A stretch of 64,000 nucleotides of DNA from a virus. Taxonomy: Duplodnaviria > Caudoviricetes. The first letter of the stretch is position 1; every line of letters begins with the position of its first letter. The translations under genes were made by a program, and so were the position numbers. This document shows positions 18,144-36,289 of this stretch, piece by piece. Location: IMG/VR virus record IMGVR_UViG_3300035208_002098, positions 128,001 through 192,000 of that record; one strand, written 5' to 3'. The notes below the pieces were generated by a model, which did no database searches, had not been told where the DNA came from, and saw only the letters and a program-made list of their open reading frames with translations.

Positions 18144-18165
18144 ATTTAATAAGTATTTGTTTATG

Positions 18166-18237
18166 TGACCTCACTGGAATTCGAATCCAGATTTAAAGTT
18201 TAGGAAACTCCCGTTCTATCCATTAAACTATGTGGCC
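18166..18237 (-). tRNA. tRNA-Arg(CCT)
   Basis: Canonical cloverleaf, TTCCTAA loop. Confidence 0.85.
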
Positions 18238-18238
18238 A

Positions 18239-18481
18239 TTAAGGATTAATTTGTTGTTGAATATCTTTAATATGTGTTACAATATTTTGAACATTAACAT
18301 GTTTAACTGCTTTAGTTAAAAAATCTATTGTGGTCTCATCATTTTGATACATATCAATAGCACCTAGAATATTATTTAATTCGTTACGTAATCGTTCAAT
18401 TGGTGTTTCATTTTCTTCATATTCACCATTTGAAAATTCCATTAAATTTTCTCTAATTTTAATTTTAGTATCTCGTTTCAT
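18239..18481 (-). CDS. Hypothetical protein
   Basis: 80-aa ORF behind TATTTA motif; KIKIRE N-terminus. Confidence 0.55.
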   Translation of the reverse strand: MKRDTKIKIRENLMEFSNGEYEENETPIERLRNELNNILGAIDMYQNDETTIDFLTKAVKHVNVQNIVTHIKDIQQQINP

Positions 18482-18511
18482 TGTATTAATATTATATACA
18501 ATAAATATCTA

Positions 18512-19114
18512 TCAATTCTTATAGTTCTTAACATACCTATCTTTTCTAGCAGAATTTTTATTCTTAGATTTATATGTTCCTAATTGCGAATCACAATTAG
18601 GGCATACACACCTTAAATTACTTCTAGTATTATTACTAGCATCACCATCAATATGGTCTAATATAAATACTATAGGTTTATTATTCCAAATATCTAACAT
18701 CCTACATATATCACATAAATTATTTTGTTCTTTTAAAATATGTGGTTTTATAGCTTTAGTATCATATAATATACCACGATATTGCTCTTGATTAATTAAA
18801 TAATTTTCATACGTTGAATTCATCTTATATTCACTAGAACATCTTATACTACAAAATTTTTGTTTATCATAACTAGTTGTAATACATTTACCACAATTTA
18901 AACAAATAATTTTTTTTATTGTACCAGTATTATATGGTTTAAAACCTTCAGGAAAAGTCTTCCTTGTAATCAATTGTATACCTAAACGTTTACATACTTT
19001 TTTTATGTAAGTATCACTAACACCATATATCTCACCTATTTTAGTATAGGGTAATTTTTCTTCAAAAATTAATTTTTCTAAATCACCCTTTTTGTATTTA
19101 TCTTCAAAATTCAT
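18512..19114 (-). mobile_element. HNH homing endonuclease
   Basis: LDHIDGDASNNTRSNLRCVCPNCD; N-terminal HTH and zinc ribbon. Confidence 0.9.
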
Positions 19115-19196
19115 AATATGTTTTATTATAAATATCTAGATAAATAATAAACGAACCAAAAGTAAATATTTTTTTAAGTTTACTTTTGGTTCGTTG

Positions 19197-19282
19197 TGAA
19201 CGAGGGGGGAGTCGAACCCACAAGTACTTTACAGTAAACGATTTAGAAGACCGTGACGCTTCCAATTACGTGCTACTCGTCC
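19197..19282 (-). tRNA. tRNA-Arg(TCT) with long variable arm
   Basis: ACGGT-CTTCTAA-ATCGT arm, 16-nt V region. Confidence 0.8.
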
Positions 19283-19303
19283 ATTACACCATGAAGGCAT
19301 TTT

Positions 19304-19447
19304 TTAATGTTTATATAATTTGAATATAGTTTCTTCTATTTCATCACGAATATCTTCATCCGTTAATTTAATATCCTTCATCTCATCTTCTATCATAATA
19401 TCCTCATTAATAATAGTCATTTCTATTTTATCATCTATGTTTTTCAT
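19304..19447 (-). CDS. Small acidic protein, 47 aa; not in ORF track
   Basis: MKNIDDKIEMTIINEDIMIEDEMKDIKLTDEDIRDEIEET; promoter at 19474. Confidence 0.5.
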   Translation of the reverse strand: MKNIDDKIEMTIINEDIMIEDEMKDIKLTDEDIRDEIEETIFKLYKH

Positions 19448-19532
19448 ATGTTTATCCTTTTACTATAATTATCACAAATATACTAAATAGTTAAGATAAA
19501 TTCAATATTTTCTTAACCAATTTATTAAAAAG

Positions 19533-19612
19533 AGGTCTAGGTGGGGGTCGAACCCACATTTACAATATCCATTACCCGTAACAGTTTCGAAGACTGAGGG
19601 GATTACAAGACC
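19533..19612 (-). tRNA. D-arm-less tRNA-like RNA, anticodon TCG (Arg)
   Basis: GGTCTTG/CTAGACC, CAGT-CTTCGAA-ACTG, GTGGG-TTCGACC-CCCAC. Confidence 0.7.
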
Positions 19613-19613
19613 A

Positions 19614-20015
19614 TTACCCTATTGGTGCAACATATCTAGGGTTTTCGTTTCTTAATATAGCTATTAACTTTCTAATTTCTTTAGGTTGTTCACTATACCA
19701 ATTATTGGCTTCAATAACTAAATCATTATATTCTTCCTCACTATAACAGAATATTTTACCATCAATTTCGATATCAGTACTAGCGAGTGATAATTCCGGA
19801 TAGTCAATAATAGGTTCTAAAACAATACCAGCAACGTTAACCCAAAAATTATAATCCTCATCAGATAATTCAATTCTACCGTTACTAAATAAACTATCAA
19901 TCATAATTTTAGCATCAAATATAGTACAATTAAAATATTTTTTAGCTTCACTTATAGCATTATGTCTACCAAATTTAAATATACCGTTATACGATATTAC
20001 ATAATATTTTTTCAT
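19614..20015 (-). CDS. Hypothetical protein
   Basis: Likely start MKKYY; promoter at 20037. Confidence 0.55.
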   Translation of the reverse strand: MKKYYVISYNGIFKFGRHNAISEAKKYFNCTIFDAKIMIDSLFSNGRIELSDEDYNFWVNVAGIVLEPIIDYPELSLASTDIEIDGKIFCYSEEEYNDLVIEANNWYSEQPKEIRKLIAILRNENPRYVAPIG

Positions 20016-20083
20016 AATTAAATTGTTATTAGAATACAAAGATAATACAATTAATTTAATTTACCAAATATTTTATTTTTTAG

Positions 20084-20168
20084 TACACCCGGAGGGATTC
20101 GAACCCCCAAGAACATAAAGTCACCTCTTTAGAAGAGAGGGACGCTTCCAATTACGTGCTACGGATGC
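20084..20168 (-). tRNA. tRNA-Arg(TCT) with long variable arm
   Basis: CCTCT-CTTCTAA-AGAGG; D region identical to 19197-19282. Confidence 0.8.
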
Positions 20169-20177
20169 ATTTTTAAG

Positions 20178-20264
20178 AGGGAAGGGTGGGAGTCGAACCC
20201 ACGATGGAACTTACGTTCACCAGATTAACAGTCTGGACTTTTCGACCACTAAAGCAACCGACCC
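20178..20264 (-). tRNA. tRNA-Asn(GTT) on a type II (Tyr-like) body
   Basis: CCAGA-CTGTTAA-TCTGG, V-arm GAAC-GTAA-GTTC. Confidence 0.7.
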
Positions 20265-20351
20265 ATGGCGTGATTATTTGAACTAGCGTTCTGGAACTAC
20301 TAAACCTCGTCATACTCTAATCACAATAACCAATAAGTATGCAGAACCTCG

Positions 20352-20432
20352 TATTGATGGTGGGATTCGAACCCACGTTTTCAATTTACCACTACGAATA
20401 TCCAAGATATAAGCTTGGCTCGGTACATCAAT
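20352..20432 (-). tRNA. D-arm-less tRNA-like RNA, anticodon TAT (Ile)
   Basis: ATTGATG/CATCAAT-A, CCAAG-CTTATAT-CTTGG, perfect T arm. Confidence 0.7.
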
Positions 20433-20442
20433 ATATTTAAAG

Positions 20443-20515
20443 TGGGCCTACACAGACTTGAACTGTGAATCTTCTCCTTATGAGGGAGGTGCCTTCACCA
20501 TTTGGCTATAGGCCC
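20443..20515 (-). tRNA. tRNA(CAT), probably Ile2 (lysidine)
   Basis: GGGCCTA acceptor, A73, CTCATAA loop. Confidence 0.75.
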
Positions 20516-20521
20516 AAACTT

Positions 20522-20818
20522 TTATACAATTTTAATAAATTCACCATTATCAATTGCTTTACCAATCCACCTATTTAAGAAAGATGCTTTAATTTGATTT
20601 TCAAAAGATGTTGTACCTAAATCAGCTGATAATTTAATGAATGGTAATTCAACTTCAGGTTTACCAATTACTTTAACAGTCTCAATAGTTTCGATTGGAA
20701 ATTGAAAAATACCTTCTTCTATTTCTACTGTATAATATAAATTACCAGAACAATAATGTGAAAATTTAGCACTTACTTTAGATTTTAATAATTGTTTTTG
20801 AACATTTAATTTTTCCAT
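20522..20818 (-). CDS. Hypothetical protein
   Basis: True start MEKLNV at 20818; the longer call overlaps tRNA-Ile. Confidence 0.65.
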   Translation of the reverse strand: MEKLNVQKQLLKSKVSAKFSHYCSGNLYYTVEIEEGIFQFPIETIETVKVIGKPEVELPFIKLSADLGTTSFENQIKASFLNRWIGKAIDNGEFIKIV

Positions 20819-20844
20819 TTTAATAATTGTTTTTAATTTATTTG

Positions 20845-20918
20845 TCCGCTTGATAGGACTTGAACCTATAACCTCTTCCGTATCAGGGAAGTAATCTAAC
20901 CAATTGATATACAAGCGG
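20845..20918 (-). tRNA. tRNA-Ile(GAT)
   Basis: Canonical cloverleaf. Confidence 0.85.
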
Positions 20919-20933
20919 ATTTATTATTTCTTA

Positions 20934-21010
20934 GGTACCTAAATTGGACTCGAACCAAAAACTAACTAGTATAAGGCTCCACAAGCCTCAGTGCCATCCC
21001 GGCTAGGTAC
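20934..21010 (-). tRNA. Atypical tRNA-His(GTG), reduced D arm, extended V region
   Basis: GAGGC-TTGTGGA-GCCTT, TTCGAGT T-loop, G-1:C73 possible. Confidence 0.6.
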
Positions 21011-21015
21011 ATTTG

Positions 21016-21100
21016 TCGTCTGGGTGAGATTTGAACTCACGTTGAGAATTAATCTCACAGCTTATCAGGCTGTTTTCTGCCACCACTCGAATACCAGACA
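21016..21100 (-). tRNA. tRNA-Ile(GAT) with long variable arm
   Basis: ACAGC-CTGATAA-GCTGT, V-arm GAGA-TTAAT-TCTC. Confidence 0.75.
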
Positions 21101-21146
21101 ATGTTAGACTCCGATTTTTTTCTAGGCAGAACGTTGTCTAAGTAAA

Positions 21147-21803
21147 CTACACAAGATATCGACCTTTTATCCAACCTTCATTTTCCCAGTTAGATAAGTC
21201 TTCGTTTTTAATCTTCTTATTAATATTATCTTTAGTAATCCAACAGGTACCATATTGTGAATTAGTTTCACCAACACCAGTACCACTTTTAATTTCAGAC
21301 ATTTTTAGTTTAGTTTCATTTGAATGGTTTTTATCTGTCCAATTATAAAAATATTTTCGTTCTAAAACTTCATCATCATATAATTTCTTAATAGTCTTAA
21401 CAAATTTTCCACTTCTTTTTTTAACCCAATCTGGGTTTGTTTCTCTAAGTTCTTTTTGTCTCTCATTAGATTTAAACGCATTTAATCTTTGTTCTTCTGA
21501 AGTAAAACCTCTTCCACCTTCACCACCAATCATTAGATTCATACATAAATCTTCCTTTAATAATTGTTTATTTACAAGCTCTTTTTCACGCTCTTTTAAT
21601 GATTCTCTATCTGGTAAAAATTCTAATATCTCTTTAATGAAATTTTCTTTACCATAATAATTAATTGAAAACCATAATCGTTTACCTGAACCTAGATAAC
21701 CATCTTCTAGGTTATTAGTACTATGCATTCCTATATAGTACTTATTGTTTATTACATTTGTTGTTTTATAAATGTAATGATATTGTTTTTGTCTTCTACC
21801 CAT
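21147..21803 (-). mobile_element. GIY-YIG (Seg-like) homing endonuclease
   Basis: YIYKTTNVINNKYYIGMH...YLGSG; NUMOD3-like HSNETKLKMS. Confidence 0.9.
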
Positions 21804-21855
21804 ATTTATATCGTTTATTATATAAATATAAGGTAAAGTACAAAAATGTCAAGTG

Positions 21856-21927
21856 GGTGTAAGCACGGTATCGAACCGAGTTCTCGTGATTCACAGTCAC
21901 GCACATCACCTTAATGCTTCAAACACC
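21856..21927 (-). tRNA. tRNA-His(GTG)
   Basis: G-1/C73, CTGTGAA loop. Confidence 0.85.
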
Positions 21928-21936
21928 ATATATTTG

Positions 21937-22018
21937 AGGAAGATAGAAGAATCGAACTCCATACCTACAGGTATCCCTAGGGTTCAAGCCTAGTTTGCCA
22001 CCGATGGCGGTACCTTCC
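21937..22018 (-). tRNA. tRNA-Ser(TGA), 8/4 allo-tRNA-like fold
   Basis: GGAAGGTA/TATCTTCC 8 bp, GGAG/CTTC 4 bp, D arm GCCA-TCGG-TGGC. Confidence 0.7.
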
Positions 22019-22027
22019 ATAAATTTG

Positions 22028-22112
22028 CGGAGGTAGTAGGGCTCGAACCCACACGGGTGTTACCCCGACCACGGTTTTCAAGACCGGTACAATACCATTC
22101 TGTCACACCTCC
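22028..22112 (-). tRNA. tRNA-Ser(TGA)
   Basis: Canonical type II, G73. Confidence 0.9.
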
Positions 22113-22116
22113 ATTG

Positions 22117-22187
22117 CACAGGTAGAAAGGGTCGAACTCTCACGGAAGGTTTTGGAGACCTTAATGCTACCATTACATTATACCTGT
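22117..22187 (-). tRNA. tRNA-Trp(CCA)
   Basis: Canonical, CTCCAAA loop. Confidence 0.85.
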
Positions 22188-22195
22188 ATATTTTG

Positions 22196-22284
22196 CACAT
22201 CGGTAGGGATTCGAACCCTCATCTAATCTTACGACCCTTAAGGACTGGGTTGGAGCCAGCTAGTCACGCCTAATGAGCCGATGT
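22196..22284 (-). tRNA. Atypical tRNA-Trp(CCA) with enlarged variable region
   Basis: ACATCGG/CCGATGT-G, CTGG-CTCCAAC-CCAG. Confidence 0.65.
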
Positions 22285-22292
22285 GTATTTAC

Positions 22293-22310
22293 CAATATGT
22301 CAAAGAACTT
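22293..22310 (-). promoter_or_regulatory. boxA-like antitermination element
   Basis: AAGTTCTTTGACATATTG; variants at about 33120-33130 and 34878-34886 before the other RNA operons. Confidence 0.55.
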
Positions 22311-22315
22311 TGTTG

Positions 22316-22387
22316 CGGACAAGGAGAATTTCGAAATCCCGACCCTCTGGTTAACGGCCAGACGCTCTGCCTCTGAGCTACGTGTCC
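22316..22387 (-). tRNA. tRNA-Asn(GTT)
   Basis: Canonical, TCTGG-CCGTTAA-CCAGA, G73. Confidence 0.85.
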
Positions 22388-31387: not shown

Positions 31388-31470
31388 TCCGGCTAGTAGG
31401 ATTCGAACCTACGGGTTCCTAAGAACGTGGGATATGAGCCCAGTGCGATTGTCCACTCTGCCATAGCCGG
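31388..31470 (-). tRNA. tRNA(CAT) with long variable arm
   Basis: TGGG-CTCATAT-CCCA, V-arm GTTC-TTAG-GAAC. Confidence 0.75.
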
Positions 31471-31477
31471 TGATATT

Positions 31478-32156
31478 TTAGTGTAATAATTGAATATTAC
31501 CTCTTAGTATATCTTTTAATTTAGCTCTTTTATTAGTAATATGGTCGATAACTAAATCATCTTTAACTCTATATGTTCTTCTTTTGTCAGAACGAGCACC
31601 ATTACCAATTTGTTGTTTTCTAAATTCTATTTCTTCGTCATTTATCTTATTAAAATAAATATCTCTAATTCTTTTTTCTATTTCTTCCCAAGCTAATTCT
31701 TCATTTCTATGTCTTTCTCGATTATTACCAATTCTAACCATGATACCTGTAGGTATATGAGTTAATACAACACAAGTTTCAACCTTATTTCTATGTTGAC
31801 CACCTTTACCACTACTACGAGTGTATTTGCGATTAACCTCATCACGGTTTAATTTAAAATTATATTCTTCTTCTGGAATTAAAGCAACGGTTATACAACT
31901 AGTTTGAATCCTACCCCTCTTTTCAGTTGGTGGTATTCTTTGCCATCTATGTGACCCGATTTCTTCTTGGAAATACTTTTCTACATCTTTACCGCTAAAG
32001 GCAAAGCATGACAAATCCACTTCTTTCTTCAACTGTTGAACAATCAAAGTTATTAATACTGGCTGCTTTTGTGTAGATATTTTTCATTTCACCTACAAGC
32101 AGTTTTGCATCGGCACCGCCTTCAGCATCTCTAAGTTCTAAAAATAGTTTTTTCAT
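31478..32156 (-). CDS. Class I peptide-chain release factor (RF1-type, lacking domain 1), 225 aa via +1 frameshift
   Basis: ELRDAEGG in frame 0; CTT TAG C at 32000-31994; HRWQRIPPTE and SSGKGGQH in the +1 frame. Confidence 0.85.
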
Positions 32157-32405: not shown

Positions 32406-32410
32406 ATTTG

Positions 32411-32494
32411 TTGCGGAGACAGGATTCGAACCTATACTAGCATTAACTGTCTCTTGGTTATGAGCCAAGAATGTTACCCTTACACCACCCCACG
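32411..32494 (-). tRNA. Initiator-like tRNA-Met(CAT) with long variable region
   Basis: C1.A72 mismatch, CTTGG-CTCATAA-CCAAG. Confidence 0.75.
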
Positions 32495-32554
32495 ATATAT
32501 TTTATAAGCTCCCCAAAGTGTGCTTCCAAAGGATAGGCATGGGGAGGATTGTTG

Positions 32555-32628
32555 TAGCGAAGAGTGGACTCGAACCACTGACCTTTAGGTTATGAGCCTA
32601 ACGAGCTACCAACTGCTACCACCTCGCA
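32555..32628 (-). tRNA. tRNA-fMet(CAT)
   Basis: 1:72 mismatch, fMet-like D arm GTAGCAGTTGGTAGCTCG. Confidence 0.85.
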
Positions 32629-34492: not shown

Positions 34493-34504
34493 CGTTTATT
34501 CTAG

Positions 34505-34870
34505 TGGAGCATCGGGAATTCGAACCCCGGTCTTTCATATTCTTCAATACCTTTCTACATGTTTAGGATAAAGATTTCTATCTTTCCAATATATTCAGTT
34601 TAATATAGCTTCAACTGATACCTACGCTATTGACCCTAGATTAACCACTTGGAACAATTTTAAAGTGGGTTCTTGGTTGTATGCTTCGTATACTTAGGCA
34701 GCTACAGCCTCTCCAGCAAGCACTTCAAAAGAAGCCTCAGCAAGGAAGTTTTCGGAAATATTTAACATATTGCCATTTGAACTTTTAACTACTCGTTTAA
34801 AGTGAATTTAGTTATTTCACTACATGCTTACCACTTACGATTATACAAAATCTAAAGCCAGTTATGCCCC
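34505..34870 (-). ncRNA. ssrA: tmRNA; tag (A)GNMLNISENFLAEASFEVLAGEAVAA
   Basis: GGGGCAT/ATGCTCC-A with G3.U70, T arm, tag ORF 34774-34694 ending AA-stop, smpB nearby. Confidence 0.92.
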
Positions 34871-34933: not shown

Positions 34934-35146
34934 TTAATCAATTTTATATACGTAAACTGAATCAATTTTATTATTTTTTTCAATAACTAATTCAACTCGA
35001 ATTGGTTTAAGTGGTTCTTTTACTTTTATTTCGTCTGATGAAAATAACCATATACCTAACCAGATAAAACCACATATAATTATTGTTATAACAACACCAA
35101 TACCAATCAAACCTTCAACTAATCCATTCATATTATAATCACTCAT
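34934..35146 (-). CDS. Small membrane protein
   Basis: Single TM. Confidence 0.6.
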   Translation of the reverse strand: MSDYNMNGLVEGLIGIGVVITIIICGFIWLGIWLFSSDEIKVKEPLKPIRVELVIEKNNKIDSVYVYKID

Positions 35147-35583
35147 TATAATACCCTCTCCATTTCTCGTTTAGCATCTTTAAGTTTCAAATCTTCACGT
35201 TTATCGTAACTTTTTTTACCTTTAGCTAAAGCAATTTCTAATTTTAATAAACCCTTATCCGTTGTGAATAAACGTACAGGTACTATTGTTAACCCAGATT
35301 GTTTTACATTATATGAAAGTTTAGATAATTCTTTCTTTGTTAATAATAGTTTCCTATGACGTTTTTCTTCGTGTGCATCACCAAATTTATATTGTGAAAT
35401 ATGTAGTCCGGTGAGCCATAATTCATTATCAATGAATACACAGTAACTATCAACAAAACTAACATTACCATCCCTAATAGCTTTAACTTCGGTACCTATT
35501 AACATTATACCAGCAACATATTTATCTAAGAATTGATAATTAAAAGAACCTTTTTTATTTTGAAGATTTACTGTCGTTTTCAT
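35146..35583 (-). CDS. smpB: SsrA-binding protein
   Basis: AGIMLIGTEVKAIR, RKLLL, GKKSYDKRE. Confidence 0.95.
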   Translation of the reverse strand: MKTTVNLQNKKGSFNYQFLDKYVAGIMLIGTEVKAIRDGNVSFVDSYCVFIDNELWLTGLHISQYKFGDAHEEKRHRKLLLTKKELSKLSYNVKQSGLTIVPVRLFTTDKGLLKLEIALAKGKKSYDKREDLKLKDAKREMERVL

Positions 35584-35584
35584 A

Positions 35585-36289
35585 TTATTTACGTTTTGTA
35601 ATAACCGAATCAATTATACCATAAGTAACTGCTTCTTGACTGGTTAACCATTTATCTCTTTCTGTATCTAACATAACTTCTTCAACTGATTTACCACAAT
35701 ACGATGCAAGTTTTGAAAAAAGTTCTAAGTTAATTTTTTCAGTTTCAATCATAGATATTCTCATATCTTGTATATTTCCTTCACTACCAGAAGACACTTG
35801 ATGTAACATAACTCTACTTGATGGTAAACTAGAACGTTTACCTTTAGTTCCAGCACCTAATAATACAGACCCCATTGATGCTGCCATACCAGTATTAATG
35901 GTTGCAATATCTGATTTAATATAATCCATAACATCAACCATTGATAATCCAGATTTAACACTTCCTCCGGGTGTATCTATATGCATTGTAATATCTTCAT
36001 TATTTACGTTGTCTAGAAACATTAATTGTGCTTGTACAACAGTACTCATAGCGTCATTAACAACACCAGCAATCCATAAAATTCTATCCATCATTAAACG
36101 TGAAAAGATATCCATTTGAGTTACACGCATTTCTCTTTCTTCAAGAATATATGGTGTCATTGATGCTTGTGTATACAATCTTGTTTGAAGTTGTTCCCAA
36201 GCTCTAAATTGCATTTGAGAAACACCTAGATGTCTACAAGCGTAGTTTTTAAATTCTCCGTAATAATCTACATTACTATAATTGTCCAT
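35585..36289 (-). CDS. clpP: Clp protease proteolytic subunit
   Basis: DIFSRL, TPGGSV, GMAASMG, MLHQ. Confidence 0.95.
   Translation of the reverse strand: MDNYSNVDYYGEFKNYACRHLGVSQMQFRAWEQLQTRLYTQASMTPYILEEREMRVTQMDIFSRLMMDRILWIAGVVNDAMSTVVQAQLMFLDNVNNEDITMHIDTPGGSVKSGLSMVDVMDYIKSDIATINTGMAASMGSVLLGAGTKGKRSSLPSSRVMLHQVSSGSEGNIQDMRISMIETEKINLELFSKLASYCGKSVEEVMLDTERDKWLTSQEAVTYGIIDSVITKRK

Follow-up and report, generated by a model that had tools for sequence, protein, structure and literature searches.

Within the window, by which we mean the whole stretch of 64,000 nucleotides that was analysed, a minus-strand gene at positions 31478-32156 probably encodes one class-I release factor of the RF1 type, 225 aa long and consisting of domains 2-4 only, that is made by a programmed +1 frameshift. 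The gene is split between two reading frames, the split is conserved among relatives, both frames are under purifying selection, and the fold and motifs of the joined protein are those of an RF1-type factor. On the minus strand, ATG 32156-32154 starts 53 sense codons (MKKLFLELRDAEGG...GFVMLCL) that run into CTT TAG C, the 0-frame tail before the shift site reading ...GTC ATG CTT TGC CTT TAG C. The +1 frame is open from AGC 31996-31994 as far as TAA 31480-31478, and the fusion of Leu53 (CTT) to Ser54 (AGC) yields the 225-aa protein. Simple readthrough of UAG was rejected as a route of expression because the 0 frame meets a second stop, TAA, two codons past TAG 31997-31995. An earlier reading of this DNA from its letters alone had described the 53-codon ORF, CTT TAG C, the +1 frame and a 225-aa product, and had called the arrangement a prfB-style CUU-stop-C +1 site with UAG; on re-reading the sequence we find the same coordinates and the same layout, with CTT TAG C followed by the +1 frame for residues 54-225. 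The elements of the gene are as follows.

31998-32156, minus strand: ORF1, 0 frame, codons 1-53, from ATG 32156 to CTT 32000-31998; encodes the N-terminal strand and helix of release-factor domain 2, including EGGxD (PCRF profile positions 100-143).
32001-32003, minus strand: TGC, the codon 5' of CUU (E-site position).
31994-32000, minus strand: shift heptamer CTT TAG C, with the P-site CUU at 32000-31998, the A-site UAG at 31997-31995 and the 3' C at 31994.
31478-31996, minus strand: ORF2, +1 frame, 172 codons, from AGC (Ser54) to TAA 31480-31478; encodes the remainder of domain 2, domain 3 (GGQ) and domain 4, by profile and structure alignments.
31925-31933, minus strand: PPT tripeptide, residues 75-77, at the position of the RF1 PxT 'anticodon' motif, in the context HRWQRIPPTE.
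31796-31804, minus strand: GGQ catalytic motif, residues 118-120, in the RF-1/GGQ domain.

The joined protein is recognised as a release factor across the junction. A match to Pfam PCRF (PF03462) spans it, covering profile positions 100-194, and the RF-1/GGQ domain (PF00472) comes next. Among NCBIfam profiles prfA ranked first (183 bits), followed by prfB (104), prfH (74) and ArfB (28). The scores stay below the equivalog cut-offs for prfA (183.1 bits vs 400 for NF001859; 172.6 vs 423 for TIGR00019), below that for PrfH (74 bits vs 166.65 for TIGR03072, with PPT present) and below that for ArfB (27.7 bits vs 100 for NF006718, the GGQ region alone being matched). Solved RF1 chains align to residues 3-224 (E ~1e-34) and are gap-free at residues 53/54; PPT falls on PVT of Thermotoga maritima RF1, and the Gln of QRxP is retained. 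The prfA ranking and this alignment across the junction bear out the assignment that had been read from PPT and GGQ. In the GRxHTS element the window copy has Gln for His, and because GRIQTS replaces GRIHTS the exact codon specificity of the factor is less certain.

The closest single-frame homolog, P0008, is 58% identical and gap-free over residues 1-98; judging by the DNA of the near-identical L194, its W39 and W52 are probably in-frame TGA codons. A structure model of P0008 (pLDDT 89) superimposes on ribosome-bound RF1 with a TM score of 0.93 and an rmsd of 1.5 Å, a better fit than to RF2 and a far better one than to PrfH (TM 0.67), and residues 53/54 fall within a domain-2 beta strand (48-55) of this model. 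Domain 1 had been reported absent, and PCRF positions 1-96 were indeed found neither in the gene nor in the entire 248-kb virus record of which the window is part (27.7% GC, estimated to be ~70% complete). The protein is about 135 N-terminal residues shorter than bacterial RF1, and neither a second release-factor gene nor a separate domain-1 gene was found in the 248-kb record. A PrfH-RtcB2 module was considered and rejected, there being no RtcB in that record. By profile, motif and modelled fold, the window gene is an RF1-type factor (PxT, GGQ), nearer to prfA than to prfB or prfH.

The sequence-only reading had proposed looking for CTT-TAG in homologs. We find CTT TAG C kept at the same codon in 12 non-redundant sequences from independent assemblies, from ~44% identity upward, and in all 12 the heptamer lies exactly 47 codons past a conserved EIR motif; two protein-based scans, independent of the shift site, added CTT TAG C cases beyond the closest relatives. 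Relatives of at least 68% identity in a 5.8-billion-protein collection had all been called as C-terminal fragments of 152-189 aa, and every one of them that we examined shares the split (P0005, P0006, P0007, P0011 and L096). The contigs of the first four represent six assemblies made independently (Logan, JGI and ENA), and all carry an upstream ORF of 53 or 54 codons whose end is CTT TAG C. When the 12 sequences were aligned over 121 columns, the heptamer was the sole invariant run of at least four columns, and an invariant run of at least seven columns appeared in 163 of 100,000 shuffles. Of the third codon positions, none of the 15 upstream and one of the 23 downstream were invariant, while both of those within the heptamer are fixed. 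The codons of the heptamer region are rare in this phage, CTT making up 12% of Leu, AGC 3% of Ser and TGC 9% of Cys codons. By these comparisons the split arrangement exceeds chance.

No Shine-Dalgarno (SD)-like element is found upstream of CUU, where the sequence GTCATGCTTTGC contains neither GGAG nor GGGG, in agreement with the earlier description; this sets the window gene apart from relatives with a shift site at codon 37 (below), which do carry GGAG or GGAGG. Across this phage, SD-like motifs precede 4 of 175 long ORFs vs 11 of 175 random in-gene 17-mers, and the sequence ahead of gene starts is A-rich. Since SD motifs are scarcer at gene starts than in the background, the absence of an SD stimulator fits an SD-independent system, and the simplest reading is that the codon-53 version of the site works in a translation system making little use of SD pairing. 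The conserved AAATTTCACC ahead of the start codon is not a general motif of this phage, and a sigma-70 promoter and terminator scan near the gene gave fewer promoter-like matches than shuffled sequence. RNAalifold on the 12 sequences returned no conserved pairs around the shift site. The codon before CUU is UGC, UGU or UAC in every codon-53 sequence (12/12); E. coli prfB has UAU before CUU, and the identity of the E-site codon modulates the shift.

CTTTAGC occurs 27 times in the window vs 4.1 times expected from shuffles, with 20 of the 27 on the plus strand, opposite most genes. As this excess is mostly antisense to genes, we put it down to Ala-Lys codon pairs (GCT-AAA-G) and do not count these copies as further shift sites. 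Elsewhere, CTT TAG C ends no gene of at least 150 aa. The sole other CTT-stop candidate in the genome lies outside the window at G000:C1:12527 (minus strand), where CTT TAA T has 87 open codons upstream and a +1 frame of 108 codons.

Bacterial prfB shifts frame at CUU-UGA-C, and Curran and Yarus are said to have found in 1988 that UAG placed at the prfB site still shifted and that amber suppressors competed. From prfB and these experiments we infer, for the window gene, the slip itself, its efficiency without an SD element and the regulatory logic that it would serve. After 53 codons the ribosome would pause, its A site over UAG and its peptidyl-tRNA-Leu paired with CUU. Fast decoding of UAG, by RF1 of the host or by the phage factor itself, would release the peptide and end synthesis, while a phage tRNA(CUA) reading UAG would lead to termination at the UAA two codons on. 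If UAG were decoded slowly, the tRNA could re-pair on UUU, AGC would be read as Ser54 and the full factor would be made. Output of the factor would then rise as UAG-decoding capacity falls, giving a prfB-like feedback or sensor loop tuned to the RF1 codon. The sequence-only reading had conjectured that the factor is made only when UAG termination is weak, that it would thereby sense RF1 inactivation and that it belongs with a tRNA attenuator. The tRNA that reads CUU, tRNA-Leu(AAG), is encoded by the phage at G000:C1:116721-116807 (minus strand) and also by G001 and G004, two complete relatives that have the codon-53 site. After a +1 slip, its pairing with UUU could consist of two Watson-Crick pairs plus a G-U pair.

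The phage also encodes a well-formed amber-suppressor tRNA(CUA) of 74 nt (G000:C1:93270-93343, minus strand), ~34.7 kb before the window start, which is 57% GC within a 28% GC genome. This tRNA(CUA) would be a second competitor for UAG, so the site would report overall UAG decoding and not RF1 alone. ARAGORN found two tRNA(CUA) genes and a tRNA(UUA) in G004 and detected no suppressor tRNA in the whole genome of G001; with one complete relative having suppressors and the other lacking them, a suppressor link is possible but not general. A homology search for the amber tRNA in relatives returned shared arm segments only.

The 248-kb record holds 48 tRNA genes and a tmRNA, many of the tRNAs being of unusual length, and the release-factor gene sits inside a same-strand run of tRNA(CAU) genes. 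Around it we find the following.

31388-31470, minus strand: tRNA(CAU) by tRNA scan, 7 nt past the stop codon of the release-factor gene.
32410-32494 and 32554-32628, minus strand: two further tRNA(CAU) genes by tRNA scan.
34504-34870, minus strand: tmRNA, 2.3 kb upstream of the release-factor gene.
35146-35613, minus strand: SmpB (177 bits).
35585-36289, minus strand: ClpP (190 bits).

An M42-like peptidase ORF lies between the release-factor gene and the tmRNA, SmpB and ClpP genes, and such an ORF is also found upstream of the release-factor gene in relatives (L090). At window positions 18165-22387 and in G000:C1:95000-118000, many tRNAs occur as adjacent pairs with the same anticodon, one member being 72-75 nt and the other 82-90 nt long (for example Arg-TCT, Ile-GAT, Ser-TGA, Trp-CCA and Asn-GTT). 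A search of prokaryote genomes gave ordinary cellular RF1 genes as best matches, at 37-44% identity, and no prophage copy; as these are ordinary RF1 genes only, they give no clue to the host.

Stop codons of ORFs of at least 150 aa (counted from stop to stop across the 248 kb) are TAA in 162 cases, TAG in 20 and TGA in 11. Genes split by TAG or TGA are not overrepresented in the record. Genome-wide recoding was considered as the explanation of the TAG and rejected, three pairs of ORFs adjacent at a TAG being read as separate genes. From these stop-codon counts, the phage is taken to use the standard code within the available 248 kb.

The window gene is one of a large family of ~225-aa phage release factors, which occur mainly on contigs of 100-600 kb; in 141 of the 148 non-redundant full-length members a stop codon interrupts roughly the first 55 codons. 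These gates take several forms: an SD followed by CTT TGA C, CTT TAG C at two positions at least, and an in-frame TGA. A clade with a mean GC of 54% carries GGAG or GGAGG, a short spacer and CTT TGA C/G/A at codon ~37. Among the 43 members with this SD cassette L027 is an exception, with the cassette at codon ~22, and variants within the codon-37 clade comprise CTT TAG C in 9 members, TTT TAG C in 1 and CTT TAA C in 1. The codon-37 cassette, SD-N3-CTT TGA C or CTT TAG C with an SD, lies 16 codons upstream of the codon-53 site. In the AT-rich clade that includes the window gene, CTT TAG C at codon 53 alternates with in-frame TGA at conserved Trp positions, one of which is the codon immediately before CTT. 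Across the family, the base after TAG is C at all 23 TAG shift sites. The 12 codon-53 carriers are not monophyletic (AU test, p = 0.0018), with at least two changes across well-supported branches; the site has therefore been gained or lost more than once.

In most relatives that lack a frameshift, one or two of the conserved Trp positions are occupied by an in-frame TGA, as in L081-L083, L261 and L262 (LR756504, LR745206 and LR756502) and in IMG/VR loci such as L006-L019 and L184-L204. The 50-kb surroundings of the gene in two in-frame-TGA phages fit the standard code, with TGA serving as a terminator. These TGAs may be gene-specific UGA readthrough gates and not a sign of genome-wide code 4. 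A small clade (L015, L133, L135 and L138) requires a +1 shift at AAC TGA A instead of a CTT-stop, and another group (L201, L203, L205, L230 and L235) has an in-frame TAG, at the Trp position before a Leu codon or elsewhere, sometimes paired with an in-frame TGA.

Whatever the gate codon, every group of the family has RF1-like residues at the decoding positions (PxT, the Gln of QRxP, and (H/Q)T). The sequence-only reading had pointed out that the stop at the site, UAG, matches the PPT motif. The match fits the predicted specificity of the window factor and stands to that extent, but it is no rule of the family: the gates of PxT relatives include CTT TGA C and in-frame TGA, and the gate codon therefore does not track factor specificity. 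Since UGA gates are found on factors that, being of the RF1 type, should not read UGA themselves, a gate may report host factors and not its own product.

This uncoupling of gate codon from decoding residues bears on the alternative that we take most seriously, in which the shift is real but does not serve RF1 autoregulation. The UAG gate would instead mainly read the state of amber suppression, with the phage tRNA(CUA) set against termination, or would simply fix a low yield, and the factor would be part of a phage programme for managing stop-codon meaning and not a backup for lost RF1. The well-formed tRNA(CUA) of the phage, together with the two tRNA(CUA) genes and the tRNA(UUA) of G004, would suit such a programme, as would the placing of phage release factors in code-change modules by Borges et al. 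The 248-kb record, however, shows no TAG or TGA recoding of genes, G001 combines the codon-53 site with no detected suppressor tRNA, and RF1 is still the obvious decoder of UAG in a standard-code cell. We consider this alternative unlikely, though it keeps an appreciable share of our expectation.

A second alternative dispenses with the frameshift: the locus would make two polypeptides, a 53-aa ORF1 product and an ORF2 product begun at an internal TTG or GTG, which would act apart or assemble, or else ORF2 alone would be made. Gene callers do annotate two overlapping ORFs here, and the +1 frame extends without a stop over the 29 codons ahead of the site, with TTG and GTG among them. ORF2, however, has no conserved start of its own, its called starts varying among relatives (V, M, or M elsewhere), and within the overlap of ORF1 and ORF2 purifying selection falls on the 0 frame. 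Among relatives dN/dS is 0.15-0.48 for ORF1 and 0.08-0.21 for ORF2, at pS of 0.3-0.7, and by this measure both reading frames are under purifying selection. The break would also interrupt a domain-2 beta strand midway and leave the start of the EGGxD helix, which in RF1 contacts the first base of the stop codon, in ORF1. A split gene leaves unexplained an invariant CTT TAG C made of rare codons, and we regard it as quite improbable.

Decoding of a quadruplet (CUUU or UAGC) by a phage tRNA with an 8-nt anticodon loop, with no slip of peptidyl-tRNA, might be suggested by the many tRNAs of unusual length among the 48 of this phage, but ARAGORN found no four-base anticodon among the tRNAs of the window phage, the site has the exact geometry of prfB and SD-bearing relatives share the heptamer, so that we give this idea hardly any weight. 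Just as hard to credit is the idea that the gene is a recent pseudogene, or that one T too many was introduced in sequencing or assembly: deleting one T of CTTT does restore a single ORF, but 12 non-redundant sequences, obtained from unrelated samples with unrelated assemblers, share the additional T at pS values reaching 0.7, and it therefore is no indel error, and dN/dS is far below 1 on either side of the site, so that an indel has, on comparative grounds, effectively been refuted by conservation already.

A programmed +1 frameshift in an RF1-type factor would be of some consequence. For about forty years prfB has been the textbook termination factor that controls itself by a frameshift at its own stop, and the same device appears to have been fitted, in the window phage and its relatives, to an RF1-type factor with an RF1-specific codon. 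More tentatively, and with doubts of our own, we raise the possibility that large phages hold a dedicated class of RF1-type factors without domain 1, almost always gated by an internal stop, whose gates sense the termination capacity of the cell, and that in phages like this one the UAG gate, host RF1 and phage tRNA(CUA) form a three-way circuit. Were this the case, the circuit would set how UAG is read during infection, and the gates of the class would comprise UGA readthrough and frameshifting at UGA or UAG. It would also give prfB autoregulation its first RF1-type parallel, and large phages a tunable means of controlling what a stop codon means. The family lends itself to asking how little a +1 shift signal requires where translation is SD-independent, what a release factor without domain 1 is for, and how large phages monitor or reset host termination and possibly amber suppression. 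It matters for annotation as well, because such genes are routinely called as two fragments.

Compared with known systems, the factor resembles PrfH in its similar size, its lack of domain 1 and its GGQ. It differs from PrfH in having PxT, in scoring 74 bits vs 166.65, in the lack of RtcB and in the weaker fold match of the P0008 model (TM 0.67 vs 0.93 for RF1). With bacterial prfA it shares the PCRF and RF-1 domains, PxT, the conserved Gln, the (H/Q)T decoding residues, GGQ and the fold of ribosome-bound RF1 (TM 0.93 for the model of the homolog P0008), whereas the missing domain 1, scores far under the equivalog cut-offs, the Gln of GRIQTS and the proposed frameshift are not features of bacterial prfA.

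A full-text literature search turned up no phage release factor described as frameshifted. Among viruses, the closest precedent is the eRF1-type gene of Mimivirus and Megavirus, which requires a frameshift as well as readthrough (Jeudy et al. 2012, PMC3521657). That factor is of the eukaryotic/archaeal eRF1 type and belongs to amoeba viruses, and its sequence and sites are unrelated to those of the window gene. Borges et al. described RF1 and RF2 genes in TGA- or TAG-recoded phages as ordinary ORFs in code-change modules and did not mention a frameshift for phage release factors. The window phage resembles those phages in combining a release factor with suppressor tRNAs in a large phage and differs from the recoded ones in keeping the standard code in the available 248 kb.

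The closest parallel remains prfB. As there, a class-I release-factor gene has CUU before an in-frame stop, a 3' C and the remainder of its coding sequence in the +1 frame, and a short 0-frame product would result whenever termination wins. The E. coli prfB shift site is at about codon 26, in domain 1. Prince et al. 2025, who surveyed more than 12,000 bacterial genomes, place the prfB site near the start of the ORF, report TAG in 0 of 8,164 prfB motifs, saw no prfA with a programmed shift, and conclude that only RF2 needs such control (PMC12421855); Atkins et al. 2016 knew of no UAG counterpart in release factor 1 genes. Unlike prfB, with its UGA, the window gene and all 12 codon-53 sequences have UAG as the stop, and the window factor is RF1-type (PxT), phage-encoded, without domain 1 and without an SD stimulator, its shift site falling at codon 53/54 within a strand of domain 2.
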